From positions 267,470 to 331,469 of the forward strand of contig CAWIZL010000004.1 of NCBI GenBank assembly GCA_963840645.1: a stretch of DNA of 64,000 bases. Direction: 5' to 3'. The notes under the pieces were generated by a model. It searched no databases, was not told the origin of the DNA, and saw nothing but the letters and a program-made list of their open reading frames with translations. This DNA comes from Candidatus Doudnabacteria bacterium (GTDB lineage: Bacteria; Patescibacteriota; Doudnabacteria; UBA920; VMFF01). A program made the translations under genes and the position numbers. Below, in pieces: positions 3,129-50,571 of the stretch; position 1 is the first letter of the stretch, and every line of letters begins with the position of its first letter.

Positions 3129-3669
3129 TAAATTGTCATTATTTCTTTCTCTTTGGCTGCTGCCAAATCTTTCACCTGCGTGTTGGCAGCATCGACTGCA
3201 ACCTGCAAATCCTTTTTCTCGTTTTCGAGGTCGTCTTTTGTCAGCGCATTCTCGCTCTCTTCGCGGTGCAGCTCTTTCACCATTTCTTCGCGCGCCGTGC
3301 GGATGGCAATGCGCGCCTGCTCTGCGAGGTGGCCGGCGACCTTCACCATTTCCTTACGACGATCTTCTGTCATTGGTGGCACCGACAGCCGAATGACAAT
3401 GCCATCATTGACTGGGTTCAACCCAATGTTAGATGCAATGATTGCCTTCTCAATGGCAGCCATGTTTGACTTGTCCCACGGCTGAACGACAATTGTCTTT
3501 GCATCAGGCGTGTTGAGCGATGCAATGTGTGCAATTGGCGTGCGCGTGCCGTACACGTCAACCTGAACAGTGTCGAGCAACGCAACGCTTGCGCGGCCAG
3601 TGCGCAACGCAGAGAGTCGTGCTTTAGGTGTTCAACGCACTTATCAAATTTTGAGGGGTCAATGGGCAT
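3128..3669 (-). CDS. frr: Ribosome recycling factor (frame interrupted once)
   Basis: MPIDPSKFDKCVEHLKHD (in ORF 3418..3684) continues into ORF 3128..3607 (RTGRASVALLDTVQVDVYG...). The break is near 3610. The stop overlaps the rseP start (TAATG). Confidence 0.9.
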
Positions 3670-3767
3670 GGGGCAAGTAGTCAATAGTTAATAGATACTA
3701 GACCTGTAGAGATAATTTTTCTTTTGATTAGTAGAGATTGCACAATTTAGCTACTAACTATTAACTA
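3670..3767. repeat. Stop-rich inverted-repeat junction element, copy A (frr | BNR gene)
   Basis: Left arm 3676-3694 agtagtcaatagttaatag. Right arm ctactaactattaactag overlaps the upstream gene's stop at 3765. The core resembles copies B and C. Confidence 0.7.
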
Positions 3768-5738: not shown

Positions 5739-6743
5739 CTACCTCGCTGATAGTATGCTCTTCTTGTAGCTATCTAAATTTTCCAGTGCAATCCCAGTTC
5801 CCTTTGCGACACACAGGATTGCCTCTTCTGCCACGTAGGCTGGCACACCAATTGCCTGGGACACCATTTTGTCTAAGTTGCGCAGCAGCGCGCTGCCGCC
5901 AGTTAAAATCATGCCCTTGTCTATGATGTCTGAGGCGGCTCTGGAGGTGTCTTGCAAAACAGTGCGCACTGCGCGGACAATGTCGCGCAGCTCGTCTTGA
6001 ATTGCCTCAACAACGTCGTTGGTTGAAATGGTGACAGTTCGCGGCAAACCCTGGATCATGTCGCGTCCTTTTATTTCCATAGACTCTTCTTCGCTCACGC
6101 GAATGGCCGAGCCAATGGTAATTTTGATTTCCTCAGCTGTGCGGTCGCCAATTGCCAAGCCGTACTTGCGGCGGATGTAGTCTGCGATTGCCTGGTCAAT
6201 CTTGTTGCCGGCAACGCGCATTGACGTTGAAGTGACAATGCCGCCGAGCGATAGCACTGCAACGTCTGTTGTGCCGCCACCAATATCTATGATGAGGTTG
6301 CCAGATGCAGAGCCAATAGGAATGCCAGCGCCAATTGCAGCTGCAACTGTTTCCTTAATGACGTACGCAGCTTTTGCGCCAGCAGCTGTTGCCGCGTCAA
6401 CCACTGCGCGTCGCTCTGTGCTGGTGATGCCGCCTGGCACTGAGATCATGACCTCTGGCCTGAAGAAGCGTACGTTGCCGAGCGCTTTATTCATGAAGTA
6501 GCGCAGCATTGCCTCAATGACGCGGTAGTCTGCGATGACGCCGTCTTTCATTGGACGCGATGCGACAATTGTCTCTGGTGTGCGACCGAGCATGTCTTTA
6601 GCTTCTTGGCCAACTGCGAGCACGCGGTTGTCTTCTATTGAAATTGCGACCACTGTTGGCTCGTTGATGACAATCCCCTTCTTTGGGATGAAGACGAGCG
6701 TGTTTGCAGTGCCGAGGTCTATGCCGATTTTAGTTTGGAACAT
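5739..6743 (-). CDS. mreB: Rod-shape-determining actin homologue MreB
   Basis: Intact 334-aa ORF. IGIDLGTANTLV phosphate-1 motif and full-length MreB-like sequence. Confidence 0.95.
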   Translation of the reverse strand: MFQTKIGIDLGTANTLVFIPKKGIVINEPTVVAISIEDNRVLAVGQEAKDMLGRTPETIVASRPMKDGVIADYRVIEAMLRYFMNKALGNVRFFRPEVMISVPGGITSTERRAVVDAATAAGAKAAYVIKETVAAAIGAGIPIGSASGNLIIDIGGGTTDVAVLSLGGIVTSTSMRVAGNKIDQAIADYIRRKYGLAIGDRTAEEIKITIGSAIRVSEEESMEIKGRDMIQGLPRTVTISTNDVVEAIQDELRDIVRAVRTVLQDTSRAASDIIDKGMILTGGSALLRNLDKMVSQAIGVPAYVAEEAILCVAKGTGIALENLDSYKKSILSAR

Positions 6744-11000: not shown

Positions 11001-11406
11001 CATCGAGTGCGGCATTCACCAAAGTATCTGCTGCCTGGTTTTTCTCTCTGCGCACGTGGCTGAACGTAATTTTTTTGAATGAAGGCCTCATGGCCAGAAC
11101 CTGAGATGCCAGTGTCTTGAGCACCGGCTCTTTAATTTTGTACTGGCCGTTGAGCTGCTTGACCACGAGCTCGCTATCAAGGTAGCACTCAACCTCTGCG
11201 TAGCCAGCGTCTCGCGCCCACGCAACAGCAGCAATGAGCGCACTGTACTCAGCGTAGTTGTTCGTCTGCTCGCCAATGGCGCGAGAAATTTCGTGAACCT
11301 TGTTCATGTTGCCAGCAGCACCGCGCTCCCAAAACACTGCCCCAATTGCAGCTGGACCTGGGTTGCCGCGCGCACCGCCGTCTGTGTGGATAGTTAGCGT
11401 ATTCAT
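10978..11406 (-). CDS. rnhA: RNase HI-family ribonuclease
   Basis: MNTLTIHTDGGARGNPGPAAIG, then NNYAEY, then a DSELVVKQ pattern. The ATG at 11406 overlaps the recJ stop (ATGA). TTG at 11460 is less likely. Confidence 0.8.
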   Translation of the reverse strand: MNTLTIHTDGGARGNPGPAAIGAVFWERGAAGNMNKVHEISRAIGEQTNNYAEYSALIAAVAWARDAGYAEVECYLDSELVVKQLNGQYKIKEPVLKTLASQVLAMRPSFKKITFSHVRREKNQAADTLVNAALDASAPAAA

Positions 11407-13062
11407 GCTTGCTTCCTGTAGTCTACCACGCGGAGCTTCACGCGCCGCGCTCCGTTCCACGAATCGTCAATCAGCTCGAACGCCAAATCAACCCTTTCAC
11501 CCGGCTGCAGGCTCTGCGCTGATTTTCCAAACCCGAACGCAATGCACTTCACCGTGCTGCCGCTCGGCAGGCGAACCGTGAGCTGCAGGTGCTTTCCCTC
11601 TTTGCCAACAGGGTTCACGTCCAAAATTTCACAACCACGCAGCATGAAGAGCGGGCTGCGGTTGTCAACGCCAAACGGCTGGAGCTGCTGCACTGCATCG
11701 TACGTCTCTGCTACGACCTCAGCTGGCAGCAGCTCTGCCTCAATGTCTAAAACTTTGGCAAACTTTGCCACGTCTGCGTTCTCGCCCGCGTACGCGAGCA
11801 AATCGCGGTAGAAAATCTCTACGTCTTGCGTCTTTAAGGTGAAGCCTGCTGCAGCTGCGTGGCCGCCGTAGCGAACCAAGTGCTGCTTTGTAGCTGTGAG
11901 CGCATCAACAACGTTGAACCCTCCGAGGCTGCGTGCAGAGCCAGTAGACTCAACCTCGCCACGCTCGAGCACGAGCACTGGCCTAGAAAATTCTTCGACC
12001 AGCTTTCCCGCAACCAAGCCAACCACGCCCTTTGGCCAGTCTGTGCCAGATGCCAAGAGCACTGGGTTTTTTGCAATGAGCTCAAGCTGGCTGCGTGCCT
12101 CAGACATGACGTTCTCTGTTAAAACTTGGCGGCGGGCGTTCAAGGTTTCAAGCTGTGCCGCCAGCTCTGCCGCGCGGGCCGCATCATCTGTCGTGAGGAG
12201 GTCAAACGCAATTGACGCGTGCTCAATGCGGCCAGCTGCGTTGATGCGCGGCGCAACCATGAACCCCAGCGTGTACGTGTCGTACGGCTCGCGCGCAGAC
12301 TTGAGCAGCTCACGCAGCCCAGCCCACTTTGTCTTTGGCAAAACTTTCAGCCCGTAGCCAACCAAAATCCTGTTCTCGCCAATTAAAGAGTGGCAGTCTG
12401 CAACAGTGCCAATGGCAACTAAATCCAAGAACCACTTCTCGTAGCCGCCTGGCAGCTCGTGCATGTCGCGGTACGAGAGCAAGCCACACGCTAGCTTGAA
12501 CGAAACCCCAACTCCAACAAGCTCGTGGTACGGGTACGCGTCACTCGGATTTTTTGGGTTGATGAGCGCGTACGCACCAGGAACTGCGGCCTGTGAGCTC
12601 GTGGTGGTCTGTGATGATAAGGTCAATTCCGTGCGCCTTGCAAAACTCAGCCTCTGCTGTTGAGTTTGTGCCGCAGTCAACCGTAACGACAACGGACACG
12701 TCCTGGGCTGCAATACTTTCAAACGCTGCGAGGTTCAAGCCGTACCCTTCTGTGAATCGATCAGGAATGTACGTGCTCACGTCAGCGCCCAGCACCTTCA
12801 GGCAGCGAAAAATGACAGCGTTGGCTGTAATGGCGTCTGCGTCGTAGTCGCTGTAAATTAAAATTTTCTCCCCACCTGCTACTGCCTCCCAAATTCTGTC
12901 GCACGCAGCTCGCATGTCTTTAAAGAGGAACGGGTCGTGCATGCTCGCGTAGTCTAGGCGCAAGAAATCCGCAGCACCCTCTTGCGGGATGCCGCGGTTC
13001 TTGAGCAGCTGCTCAACCAAGCTCTTCTCTGTTCTCTCTCGAACGTTCCAGACTTTCTGCAT
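11403..13062 (-). CDS. recJ: Single-stranded-DNA-specific exonuclease RecJ (frame interrupted once)
   Basis: ORF 12541..13062 carries the DHH motifs (IYSDYDADAIT, TVDCG, ITDHHE). ORF 11403..12722 carries DHHA1 (GGHAAAAGF) and the OB-like C-terminus. The break is near 12600. Confidence 0.85.
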
Positions 13063-13231
13063 GGGAACAGTATACAGTAGTTAGTAGTTAGTAGTTAGTA
13101 GTTAGTAGTTAGTAGTTAGTAGTTAGTAGTTAGTAGTTAGTAGTTAGTAGTTAGTAGCTAAATTCGAACGGCAGGCTAACGAAAAGAAAGATTTTACGGA
13201 TCCGTCTATTGTCTACTAACCAGTAACTATT
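13063..13231. repeat. Stop-rich junction element, copy D (recJ | gpmI), core inverted relative to copies A-C
   Basis: The left arm is expanded into the TAGTTAG array. The core 13155-13210 (tagctaaattcgaacggcaggctaacgaaaagaaagattttacggatccgtcta) aligns to the reverse complement of the copy C core. Confidence 0.75.
13078..13157. repeat. Heptanucleotide microsatellite (TAGTTAG) x 11.4
   Basis: Perfect 7-nt periodicity counted from 13078 to 13154, plus a trailing tag. Confidence 0.97.
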
Positions 13232-14813: not shown

Positions 14814-14830
14814 ATACTCATACTTTATAC

Positions 14831-16024: not shown

Positions 16025-16128
16025 GGAACAGTAGTTAATAGTTACTAGATAGTAGACAGGTCCAGTAAAATTTTCATTCTATTGATAAGCGGCAGTAATT
16101 TAGCTATTAACTATTACCTATTGACTAC
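16025..16128. repeat. Stop-rich junction element, copy B (pgk | gap)
   Basis: 16032-16041 tagttaatag pairs with 16104-16113 ctattaacta (10/10). The core is aaaattttcattctattgataagcggcagtaatttagcta. The gap stop TAG (16125) lies inside the right arm. Confidence 0.75.
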
Positions 16129-17147: not shown

Positions 17148-17248
17148 GTTTATTGCTTGGTGGTTAATAGTTACACTTAGTATACAGTATAAGTATTAAG
17201 TAGATGAATTTCGTGCGCTACTGCATACTTATACTAACTACTGTCACA
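17148..17248. repeat. Stop-rich inverted-repeat junction element (arms only, different loop)
   Basis: agtataagtat...taagtag on the left pairs with ctact..atacttatact on the right. AT-rich, built of TAG/TAA units. Confidence 0.55.
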
Positions 17249-17792
17249 CTACGGCTGTGACCAGTCTACGGGCGTGACACCCTTCACGATTTGCCTGGCT
17301 GTGACGACCACTGGGATGAGGCTTCCGGCAGTGGTGTCGTAGAACGCCTCGTACTGCGTGCCTGGCACTGCTGAGTACACGTAGTACGAGCCAGCTGGCA
17401 CTGCAACGGAAAAATTGAGTGCCCCGTCCGCAAGTGGATGGAATACGTCTGGGTGTGCACAGTACAGAGATGAAGCGTTCACGGCAATGGCACACACGTA
17501 CAGCCCGCTGTCTTCTACGGCATCTGGCGAGTACTGCGTTGTGCCCGTGATGTGCGCTGTCGTGAGTGGCGAGGTGAGCGTCTTGAACACGGGCATCGGC
17601 GTTGCCTGCGTGCCACTGTGCGTCGGCACGTGCGCCACTGGAGAAAAGTCAACCACTGAGGCCTGCGAGTAGCTGGCGAGCCCCGTTCGTGTAGACCAAG
17701 GCTCCGAGCGCGCATATGCCGAGCATCACTATCACGAAAACCCTGAGTGCTACGTTGCTTCCCCCTACAGATGTACCTACAATGTCTGGCAT
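17249..17792 (-). CDS. Hypothetical membrane-anchored protein (frame interrupted once)
   Basis: ATG at 17792 gives MPDIVGTSVGGSNVALRVFVIVMLGICALGALVY (TM helix). A break near 17660 joins it to ORF 17249..17656, which is beta-rich (PAGSYYVYS). Confidence 0.4.
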
Positions 17793-40534: not shown

Positions 40535-40647
40535 AGGTGCAGGTAGTTGGTAGTTAGTAGTTGATAGCTGGAGCCGATAGTTAGTATAGGGTAGCAGATG
40601 GTAACGCGCAAACGTGCGGATGCGATCTATTAACTACCAACTATTAA
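40535..40647. repeat. Stop-rich junction element, copy E (secY | rplO), core in the copy D orientation
   Basis: 40544-40556 tagttggtagtta pairs with 40631-40643 taactaccaacta (13/13). gtgcggatgcgatcta resembles the gcggatccgtcta core end. Confidence 0.75.
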
Positions 40648-45449: not shown

Positions 45450-45554
45450 GGGAGCAAGTAGTTAGTATAAATAGTTATTAGACGGATCCGCAAAATTTTT
45501 CATTCTATTGGTAGGCTGTCGTAGTTTAGCTACTGAATACTTATACTAACTACT
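45450..45554. repeat. Stop-rich junction element, copy C (rplP | rpsC)
   Basis: 45457-45473 agtagttagtataaata pairs with 45538-45554 tacttatactaactact (16/17, the mismatch being a G-U equivalent). The core is tagacggatccgcaaaatttttcattctattggtaggctgtcgtagtttagcta. The rpsC stop (45546) lies inside the right arm. Confidence 0.8.
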
Positions 45555-46211: not shown

Positions 46212-46258
46212 GGGACAGTAGTTAGTATGAGTAGTTAGTAGTCGGGAACAGAGACCAG

Positions 46259-46866: not shown

Positions 46867-46934
46867 GATTTTATGCCTACTGAATACTTATACTGACTAC
46901 TTGCCTTTTGCCTTTGCCGGTTCTGCTGCTTCTG

Positions 46935-47234: not shown

Positions 47235-47340
47235 GGGCTCAGATAGTTAATAGAGAATAGAAAATAGGCGAACTGTGATACTTTTTGCTGTACTTGATAT
47301 GCGCATGTGCTTTAGCTATTGACTATTTGCTATTGCCTAC
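47235..47340. repeat. Stop-rich junction element, diverged copy G (rpsS | rplB)
   Basis: agatagttaatag on the left, ctttagctattgactatttgctattgcc on the right. The rplB stop (47337) lies inside the arm. Confidence 0.55.
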
Positions 47341-49858: not shown

Positions 49859-49978
49859 TGGATTCGCAGGCTTGAGGCAAGTTCGAGGCAAAGTGTGAGG
49901 ATTTCTCGAGGCGTAGTCTACTACGGTGAGAGAAATCCGAACACTTTAACAAAGAAATTGACCAAGCCTGCGAATCCA
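49859..49978 (-). promoter_or_regulatory. 120-nt rod-like nested hairpin just upstream of rplC
   Basis: Four nested stems. Outer 16 bp: 49859-49874 tggattcgcaggcttg pairs with 49963-49978 caagcctgcgaatcca. Then aaagtgt/acacttt, then ggatttctc/gagaaatcc, then cgtag/ctacg. Confidence 0.55.
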
Positions 49979-49980
49979 AC

Positions 49981-50033
49981 CCAAATAAAAAACCGAGACG
50001 ATCCGCTTGCTTGCACAAATAAACCGTCTCGGT
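49981..50033 (-). terminator. Terminator-like hairpin plus U-run inside the rpsJ-rplC spacer (possible attenuator)
   Basis: 9-bp GC-rich stem: 49992-50000 accgagacg pairs with 50025-50033 cgtctcggt. On the minus strand it is followed by ttttttattt. Confidence 0.5.
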
Positions 50034-50196
50034 TCTTCAGTAAGCTGTATTGGATTCTGCTGAGCCAGCTAATTAAGCTGGAAATTGAATTTTTAACCTG
50101 CGTGCGGCTTGGTTTGGGTTCAGAGGTTGTCGCCCATTCTGCGAAGTTCTCTGTTTCCTTGCCTTGCCTACTAAATACTTACACTGACTACTTTCC

Positions 50197-50542: not shown

Positions 50543-50571
50543 ATTTTATACTAGTCTCACGGTTTTGTCAA
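50543..50571 (-). promoter_or_regulatory. Sigma70-type promoter of the S10 operon
   Basis: Minus strand: TTGACA (50571-50566), 17-nt spacer, TAAAAT (50548-50543). The 8-bp inverted repeat tctcacgg/ccgtgaga brackets the -35. Confidence 0.55.

Follow-up and report, generated by a model that had tools for sequence, protein, structure and literature searches.

Within a 64,000-nucleotide stretch of the genome of a Candidatus Doudnabacteria bacterium (assembly GCA_963840645.1, contig CAWIZL010000004.1, positions 267,470 to 331,469 of the forward strand; we call this whole stretch the window), the junctions between consecutive genes of several operons are occupied by copies of a palindromic element of about 100 bp. 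The family is real and apparently undescribed: a homologous core is found at five junctions of the window and further copies are carried by two related metagenome contigs, which bears out the initial annotation of this DNA on the existence of a genuine repeat family. We consider that these elements are probably a lineage-restricted, non-autonomous, palindromic dispersed repeat, of the kind of the MITEs (miniature transposable elements with inverted repeats) Correia, ERIC and RUP, or of REPINs, the inverted doublets of REP sequences (which are palindromic, repetitive and extragenic). We are led to this reading because the homologous core sits at unlinked junctions and in either orientation, because orthologous sites are filled or empty among relatives, and because there is neutral evolution, with half-copies and a tandem expansion of arm units. 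Among the roles that the initial annotation had listed, a 'domesticated MITE' comes closest to this outcome; the dedicated RNA devices listed beside it found no support in the tests run.

A full element is made of a TAG-rich arm of about 25 nt, a homologous A-rich core of 46-49 nt and a complementary CTA-rich arm, and the copies measure 98-169 bp. Read on the coding strand, every long copy displays the same order: the stop codon of the upstream gene, a TAG-rich arm devoid of C, a loop, a CTA-rich arm devoid of G, a short C-rich tail and the ATG of the following gene. The arms consist of tandem units of 6-7 nt (AGTAT, AATAG, TAGTTAG) and belong to two subfamilies, one of the AGTAT type with a period of 6-7 nt, the other of the AATAG/TAGTTAG type with a period of 7. 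In all the copies of the window the terminal arms span 17-28 nt, are 78-94% complementary and lie symmetrically about the core, at register 0. The core, whose consensus runs roughly CTAAA-TAC...ACCAAT-AAAAGAAAAATT...GGATCCGT and is common to five spacers of the window, keeps its length of 46-49 nt in 10 of the 10 copies known (five in the window, two in contig L001, three in contig L011). A profile built on it retrieves the five copies of the window (E 1e-12 to 1e-15), two in L001 and two of the three full elements of L011, the third (gap|pgk, each junction being named by its upstream and downstream genes) having been identified by eye and by alignment. In a repeat search the elements come out as the longest local inverted repeats of the window, with arms separated by 48-50 nt in four copies. 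Perfect 12-mer inverted repeats with loops of 30-130 nt occur at three loci in the 64 kb, two of them elements and the third the S10|L3 leader, where we calculate that chance would give about 0.4. The end-to-end pairings noted at the outset are all exact (40544-40556 with 40631-40643, 13/13; 45457-45473 with 45538-45554, 16/17; 16032-16041 with 16104-16113, 10/10). A small conserved open reading frame (ORF) in the core was considered and rejected, its ATG being present in two copies only; more generally, a conserved ORF in the elements is excluded because stops occur in every frame.

The placement of the elements is remarkably strict. All 13 copies and half-copies of the window lie at co-directional stop-start junctions, in the ribosomal-protein, gap-pgk-gpmI and frr operons, where they occupy 8 of the 21 junctions of S10-spc-secY, 4 of the 4 junctions from x (the gene preceding gap) to recJ, and BNR|frr. 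No copy was found at the approximately 35 other co-directional junctions of the window, nor in its promoter or terminator spacers. The stop codon always falls in the first 10 nt or so of the 5' arm, and the next ATG comes 0-8 nt past the other arm, with its AUG unpaired; the initial annotation had rightly placed the stop in one arm and the following start close behind the other. The copies are thus shown to lie inside transcription units, where they stand in place of the native stop codon and of the entire native spacer, and therefore the upstream gene terminates at the first TAG of the element. By our count, upstream genes end in TAG at 12 of 13 elements, a proportion to be compared with 13 of 40 for the other genes of the window, and the stop of both L2 and S3 is TAA in 4 of 4 relatives that lack the element: it is the element that provides the stop codon of the upstream gene. 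Stop codons in all three frames had also been put forward as a hallmark of the family. This holds for the window, where in 6 of 7 copies no sense frame is left open by the left arm with its 7-nt period (with a probability of 0.07-0.27 each among shuffles), but not for the homologous copies of L001 and L011, which use units such as TATCAG and close just one or two frames in 4 of 5 cases. Saturation with stops is therefore not conserved across the family; it is a by-product, since the unit that contains the stop has a period which is not a multiple of three. Finally, no promoter and no terminator is predicted inside any element over the 38.5-51 kb scanned, and an intrinsic terminator or a promoter-bearing repeat was set aside on that account.

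Relatives of the window differ in the junctions that are filled. Contig L001, a metagenome contig from SRR30280140 (86% nucleotide identity over the operon), is filled by full elements at L2|S19 and S3|L16; it carries solo arms at S19|L22, L22|S3 and S17|L14, and at L15|secY a mini form of 35-36 nt only, where the window has a variant element. Contig L011, from the metagenome assembly ERZ25039472 (88% identity for glyceraldehyde-3-phosphate dehydrogenase, GAPDH), carries three full elements, at gap|pgk, pgk|gpmI and recJ|rnhA, and none at x|gap or gpmI|recJ. L010, with an S3 protein within the same 90% cluster, has no full element in 8.3 kb; it has a solo arm at L22|S3 and, at L15|secY, a mini form of 35 nt, an arm with a core stub. 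L003 and L012, which come from one genome (S3 90%, GAPDH 91%), are without elements in 41 kb and have spacers of 1-58 nt; in L006 and L007 (S3 81-82%) spacers are 1-20 nt. Of the two junctions S3|L16 and L2|S19, filled in the window and in L001, L010 and L003 have spacers of 9-31 nt, L006 and L007 spacers of 3-5 nt. As occupancy differs in this way among relatives, elements are gained and lost junction by junction.

Solo arms follow a rule of their own: those on the stop side always begin at the stop codon and those on the start side always end beside the ATG. We note that the L22 gene is flanked by two such arms complementary to one another, both in the window (46878-46901 with 46217-46242, 20/24) and in L001 (920-935 with 1553-1576, 15 nt exact). 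At L22|S3, the arm of the window (46217-46242) and that of L010 (2197-2235) show five differences, four of which are T/C changes at the same position of the unit (CTACT vs CCACT) while the peculiarities of individual units are kept; all the units have therefore changed in parallel. At S17|L14, arm-like sequence is found in L003 as well as in L001.

The initial annotation had claimed compensatory changes in the arms, so that pairing rather than sequence would be conserved. The tests run lend no support to this claim. Within a subfamily, the left arm of one copy matches the right arm of another copy as well as its own; an excess of self-pairing does appear on the diagonal (permutation p 0.013 and 0.0006), and it arises because there are two arm subfamilies. 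RNAalifold returns no consensus pair from the 10 copies, which thus do not display the covariation that would mark a structured cis-regulatory RNA. G:T and A:C mismatches in the family number 22 and 35, that is, without an excess of G:U in the sense RNA, although this test is a weak one, as even terminator-like hairpins show no asymmetry (5 vs 6). When the junctions are folded and compared with dinucleotide shuffles, the copy at 45450 alone stands out clearly (z -4.6), the six other copies of the window that were folded range from -0.5 to -2.0, and little is left of the pairing in the S3|L16 copy of L001 (z -0.5). Four-fold degenerate sites of the window are 68% identical to those of L001, cores at the same junction 71% and 52%, and paralogous cores 40-75%; the core evolves at about the neutral rate. 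The pairing of all window copies at register 0 is what a decaying DNA palindrome would resemble. On this evidence, pairing is under no selection, or only weak selection, and a dedicated RNA device is left unsupported.

A stem between an upstream stop and a downstream start can tie initiation downstream to translation upstream, as happens in ribosomal-protein operons and phage RNA. The elements might be hairpins selected by the host for translational coupling, with the core as an irrelevant loop: the arm that follows the stop would mask the leader, poor in G, of the cistron that comes next; a ribosome that terminates in the 5' arm would either melt the stem and free that leader or cross the base of the stem to the ATG, and a downstream ribosomal protein would be made only when the upstream one is. 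We regard this as unlikely, while granting it some substance. The geometry is invariant (stop in the arm, end of the stem beside an unpaired AUG), the genes concerned are without Shine-Dalgarno sites, the elements are restricted to highly expressed operons where stoichiometry counts, and at L2|S19 the stem enters conserved C-terminal codons of L2, with altered codon choice; the same architecture, built on unrelated sequences, is also seen in many S10-spc operons of Patescibacteria (100 of 326 spacers, see below). However, close relatives manage without elements, with spacers of 1-30 nt, and the same geometry would follow from any insertion where the spacer is very short. Several copies fold no better than shuffles, one arm is about fourfold longer than its partner, and neither covariation nor an excess of G:U is observed. 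Above all, a homologous core at unlinked junctions and in either orientation demands dispersal, whatever the function. The likeness to known coupling stem-loops, which share the stem between stop and start, is one of function only, for those are unique and locus-specific, in contrast to a dispersed family with a shared core and polymorphism.

Another way to give the stems a role is to see them as sites where RNase III or another endonuclease would cut, or as mRNA stabilizers: AU-rich stems of some 20-25 bp would be cleaved or would block exonucleases, so that a polycistronic mRNA would be split up into pieces whose ends are protected and whose leaders are short and free of G. Stems of 17-28 bp are within the range of RNase III substrates, and the elements are co-transcribed, without internal promoter or terminator. 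Moreover, Correia elements are bound and cleaved, or protected, by RNase III (PMC2649163), ERIC changes the stability of flanking transcripts (PMC2229807), and complementary solo arms bracket entire cistrons (L22, both in the window and in L001) or a 5-kb block in the locus L016 considered below. Yet internal loops of 2 nt break up many stems every 5 bp (the copy at 47235 is an example), relatives do without elements, the sequence evolves neutrally and no gene for RNase III was found in the window, all of which makes this role very unlikely in our eyes.

The units themselves suggest a third possibility, namely that the arms are binding arrays for a ring-shaped RNA-binding protein which would recognize UAG (NAG) triplets with a 7-nt period, in competition with the hairpin, and which would switch downstream translation when bound at the stop-proximal arm. 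HutP does bind three UAG motifs in successive 7-nt units (PMC2425495), and arms of the AATAG type contain three to four UAG triplets with gaps of four nt (16025, 47235, the L011 copy at 6180 and L15|secY in L010). The parallel change of four units at L22|S3 between the window and L010 would fit a change in the specificity of a trans-acting factor. Against this stand arms of the AGTAT type and those of L001, which do not fit the motif, heptad arms elsewhere made of unrelated units without AG, and the lack of a HutP or TRAP domain among the approximately 55 ORFs of the window; the palindromic symmetry of the DNA explains the UAG array equally well. We give this possibility hardly any credence.

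How far do such hairpins extend? We scored inverted repeats against shuffles in the junction spacers of 46 S10-spc loci (L013-L058) taken from species-representative genomes, a sample where the species of the window is not represented, as the nearest S3 is only 79% identical. The core of the window occurs in none of the 46 loci. In 100 of 326 co-directional spacers of 40-170 nt, there is an inverted repeat matched by 0 of 100 shuffles. Long arms that do not belong to terminators are internally periodic in 23 of 47 cases, and 14 of these 23 have a period of 7. Closure of all frames by stops is enriched in the arms of these other genomes but concerns a minority (7 of 41, for 2.5 expected), and 87 of their junction hairpins total 52 G:T and 49 A:C mismatches. 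One locus, L016 (from the Doudnabacteria metagenome-assembled genome MFD04780.bin.2.152), has between 6000 and 16450 a hairpin at nearly every S10-spc junction, from at least seven unrelated repeat families, with AATAGCG, TACGAAA, AATTTCA, AAGATTG, GGGTAGA or CATGAAG as tandem arm units, and a GC-rich family of 106 nt besides. Some copies of a same family are 92-96% identical there, which shows that this kind of element has spread recently within the class. One family shares the last codons and the stop (AAAGTTTAA) of two different upstream genes, and one copy lies in a spacer that is not a junction. In this locus, too, complementary solo arms (12741-12784 with 17712-17755; 44 nt, 75%) surround a block of 5 kb. 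Similar hairpins are present in other Doudnabacteria-like loci, and in loci from Moranbacteria, Portnoybacteria and Komeilibacteria. At L16|L29 of L027, where S3 is 50% identical to that of the window, the hairpin at 11105-11232 has different, GC-clamped arms, and its loop contains AATCAAAAGAAAAATTAT, 18 nt identical to the core of the copy at 3670, followed by CCGTCT..TAACTATT; this loop could be a distant homologue of the core, or the match could be due to chance. We found no published description of junction hairpins of this kind. Their recurrence with arms of 7-nt period keeps a functional reading alive, at low probability. Stop-start hairpins would then be a general mRNA punctuation in Patescibacteria devoid of Shine-Dalgarno sites, either passing the ribosome over the base of the stem to the next ATG, in a bacterial analogue of ribosome shunting, or defining processing sites, with arm units that co-evolve with a trans-acting partner; the family of the window would be the version of one lineage, not junk. 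We deem so general a role decidedly doubtful.

Comparison with known repeats places the dispersed repeat that we favour close to several of them. Bacterial MITEs are 100-200 bp long and their transcripts form long stem-loops by pairing end to end; stops in all frames are found in several of them, and TA termini in many (PMC2229807). The elements described here share with Correia (CREE/NEMIS), ERIC/IRU and RUP a size of about 100 bp, terminal inverted repeats of some 25 bp, a conserved core, TA...TA termini, a predicted single long stem-loop and co-transcription between genes (PMC2229807, PMC2649163), together with filled and empty sites among relatives, and, with RUP and the 155-bp Correia element, stop codons in all frames. 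They differ in that no target-site duplication is seen, nor any partner insertion sequence among the ORFs of the window, in their arms, which are arrays of tandem 6-7-nt units instead of unique sequence, in replacing a stop codon and a whole spacer to abut on the next ATG, in lying, within this window, at intra-operon junctions only, and in their host, a bacterium of the candidate phyla radiation (CPR), for which we found no report of such elements. They are, in short, small, non-coding, dispersed homologous copies with terminal inverted repeats and filled or empty sites, as MITEs are, without the duplication of the target.

The likeness to REPINs is also considerable. REPINs are inverted REP doublets with a spacer, and their singlets are remnants (PMC3116915). 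Two inverted units of about 25 nt around a less conserved spacer, in a hairpin of about 100 nt, single units read as remnants, and a transcribed extragenic location near stop codons are common to both (PMC3116915, PMC12306157). However, each REP is a GC-rich palindrome, whereas the present arms are not palindromic and cannot pair with themselves, being free of C on the stop side or of G on the start side; REPINs are accompanied by a RAYT gene and spread at random over extragenic space, while the elements here are not random and no RAYT was found among the ORFs of the window. We thus find the inverted units and the spacer hairpin of a REPIN, and no palindromic REP unit. Rickettsia palindromic elements likewise are small palindromes that persist in a reduced genome at sites of low harm, gene ends included (PMC2229807), but those are translated in frame within genes, whereas ours terminate the upstream frame immediately.

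A strict core pattern (TAGCTAAAYTACNNNNGCYNAYCAAT) had no match in 185,579 species genomes, two chance matches without arms in JGI metagenomes and one in viral contigs, at the same chance locus as in the JGI metagenomes. Rfam covariance models gave no match in the window at gathering score; at E<=10, they gave only generic microRNA-precursor hairpins (16-20 bits, for thresholds of 62-90), in keeping with the initial annotation, which did not recognize the family. No paper came to our notice that deals with such elements in Doudnabacteria, in the CPR or in Patescibacteria. Among other candidates, integron attC sites were rejected, as the arms end in TAG.../...CTA without the GTTRRRY of R/L core sites and what flanks the elements is not cassettes but conserved ribosomal and glycolytic genes, the order of which is conserved as well; attC, CRISPR and TIGR arrays alike were rejected on seeing single hairpins with genes in between and no tandem array. 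An IHF site was rejected too, WATCAANNNNTTR being unmatched in our reading.

How would such repeats be tolerated in operons of this importance? In the polycistronic mRNA, the arms would pair and the insert would be looped out, keeping stop and start adjacent and preserving termination-reinitiation in a genome mostly without Shine-Dalgarno sites. Insertions in ribosomal-protein, glycolytic and frr operons may be tolerated because the hairpin keeps the two codons together; such a filter would account for the stop-start niche, and would leave room for a secondary use in coupling or processing. The arms may evolve at the DNA level, as inverted tandem repeats subject to slippage and possibly to the template-switch correction of quasi-palindromes, which would maintain a rough complementarity without selection on the RNA. 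Half-elements would be decay products or precursors. As for spread, the candidate routes are transposition by an enzyme that we do not see, or ectopic conversion between junctions that already bear arms; the latter would explain the absence of duplications and of a transposase, the flipped core, and solo arms in the absence of full copies.

Several observations nevertheless weigh against a dispersed repeat. No target-site duplication is visible when filled and empty orthologous sites are compared, although a duplication of TA could be masked by arms made of TAG and CTA repeats. The native spacer is missing, not displaced, and is found on neither side of the element. No transposase, RAYT or other mobilizing gene exists among the approximately 55 ORFs of the window. 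The copies are old (40-75% identity), with no sign of current mobility in this genome. Solo arms are present in genomes without full elements (L010, L003), and hence arms may predate cores. A distribution limited to junctions is not what a purely selfish element predicts, and hairpins of the same geometry and unrelated sequence in distant Patescibacteria could indicate a function. Insertion polymorphism, which the initial annotation had held to tell against its proposal, is indeed seen, but no target-site duplications go with it, and the elements keep a consistent relation to the stop and start codons. Even as a dispersed repeat, the family is unusual in its exclusive stop-start niche in highly expressed operons, in its clean replacement of stop and spacer without duplication and in the tandem units of its arms.

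The census of the window comprises five core-bearing copies, one of them flipped, two variants, and six half-elements or mini forms (Table 1; copies are designated by their first coordinate). The gene context given at the outset for the longer spacers proved right (BNR|frr, gpmI|recJ, gap|pgk, x|gap, L15|secY, S3|L16, L2|S19); the short forms lie at S17|L14, L22|S3, S19|L22, L3|L4 and S10|L3.

Table 1. Elements, variants and partial copies in the window.
Type	Junction	Position	Strand	Particulars
Full element	S3|L16	45450..45554	-	Core 45476-45537, core hit E 1e-15; minimum free energy -34.4, z -4.6; left arm AGTAGTTAGTATAAGTATTCAGTAG, containing the S3 stop TAG; right arm CTAATAACTATTTATACTAACTACT, then TGCTCCC, then ATG
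Full element	L2|S19	47235..47340	-	Core 47260-47324; arms of four AATAG / CTATT units, 7-nt period; stem runs into the last L2 codons, GGGCACAG paired with CTGAGCCC
Full element	gap|pgk	16025..16128	-	AATAG-type arms; core 16048-16112
Full element	BNR|frr	3670..3767	-	Arms TAGTTAATAGTTAGTAG / CTATTAACTATTGACTA; core 3694-3759
Full element	gpmI|recJ	13063..13231	-	Core 13149-13213, orientation opposite to the other copies (profile hit on + strand, others -); start-proximal arm expanded to 11.7 perfect CTAACTA heptamers, 13076-13157 (100% matches)
Variant	L15|secY	40535..40647	-	Family-type arms (17 nt, 94% complementary), unrelated 59-nt loop
Variant	x|gap	17148..17248	-	AGTAT-type arms 17179-17203 and 17218-17242, 14-nt loop, no core
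Solo start-proximal arm	S17|L14	44511..44549	-	CTACTAACTACTTATACTAACTACT, then CCCCA, then ATG
Solo start-proximal arm	L22|S3	46212..46258	-	Orthologous solo arms in L001 and L010
Solo stop-proximal arm	S19|L22	46867..46899	-	TAGTCAGTATAAGTATTCAGTAG
Mini hairpin	L3|L4	49155..49180	-	TAGGTAATAGTTAATAG, CCG, TTAACTACC; arm units only
Solo stop-proximal arm (after S10)	S10|L3	50160..50196	-	TAGGGAAAGTAGTCAGTGTAAGTATTTAGTAG
Short stop-proximal arm-like spacer	pgk|gpmI	14814..14830	-	GTATAAAGTATGAGTAT; full element there in L011

With reference to the source of this DNA, the S3 protein of the window shares 96% identity with one metagenomic protein, and 74-79% with proteins that bear the name Doudnabacteria. 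Nearly all genes at 0-55 kb are on the minus strand, and include the BNR-frr pair (3-4 kb), a sugar and glycolysis cluster (11-19 kb) that ends with gap-pgk-gpmI-recJ, and the S10-spc-secY ribosomal-protein operon (39-50.5 kb). Shine-Dalgarno sequences are absent upstream of most genes, the usual context before ATG being ACC, CCC or ACCAT, and GGAGG precedes a few genes (55405, 55815). Many conserved genes are disrupted by single-base indels with respect to L001, beyond homopolymers too: this is the case at about 39932 (secY), 46576 (L22), 46956 (S19) and 44209 (L14), in frr at about 3610-3660, and also in L2 (47819-47954), L4 (48882-48966) and EF-Tu (50.7-52 kb). Genes of L011 are broken in the same way. 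This is probably uncorrected error of long-read assembly, and it leaves our finding intact, because homologous elements are present in independent assemblies; an artefact of assembly as the origin of the elements was rejected, since they are seen in separate Logan, ENA and NCBI assemblies. An alternative genetic code was likewise rejected, TGA, TAA and TAG each terminating conserved genes.

Other features of the window deserve mention. Upstream of S10, at 50543-50571 on the minus strand, there is a sigma-70 promoter close to the consensus (TTGACA, 17 nt, TAAAAT), preceded by a terminator-like hairpin after EF-Tu. The S10|L3 spacer (49885-50165, minus strand, about 300 nt) contains a structured RNA conserved in L003, L006 and L007, which has a pair of helices on its 5' side and a long hairpin that resembles a terminator (GAACCGAGACGG...CGTCTCGGTTTTTT). 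RNAalifold predicts 43 consensus pairs, of which 16 are kept through two-sided changes in at least one sequence, and there is no match in Rfam. This RNA is a candidate for an attenuator responding to a ribosomal protein, sited after S10 instead of before it. Further on, between 52349 and 62461, nine successive ORFs, which lie on both strands and encode 128-427 aa, match nothing in Pfam.

If mobile palindromes is what the elements are, this would be, as far as we found, the first time that a family of small dispersed repeats is described in a bacterium of the CPR, and it would tell us that even tightly packed genomes of about 1 Mb harbour such DNA, with the stop-start junction as a safe site, where hairpins loop the insertion out. 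Whatever their origin, they alter the ends of genes (in S3, L2 and L15 the stop codon is changed, with at most a few residues at the C-terminus), and they lengthen spacers which annotation pipelines expect to be short; they can also be used as markers at the level of strains. If the broader pattern of hairpins is functional, it would bear on the way in which internal cistrons initiate translation without Shine-Dalgarno pairing in Patescibacteria.

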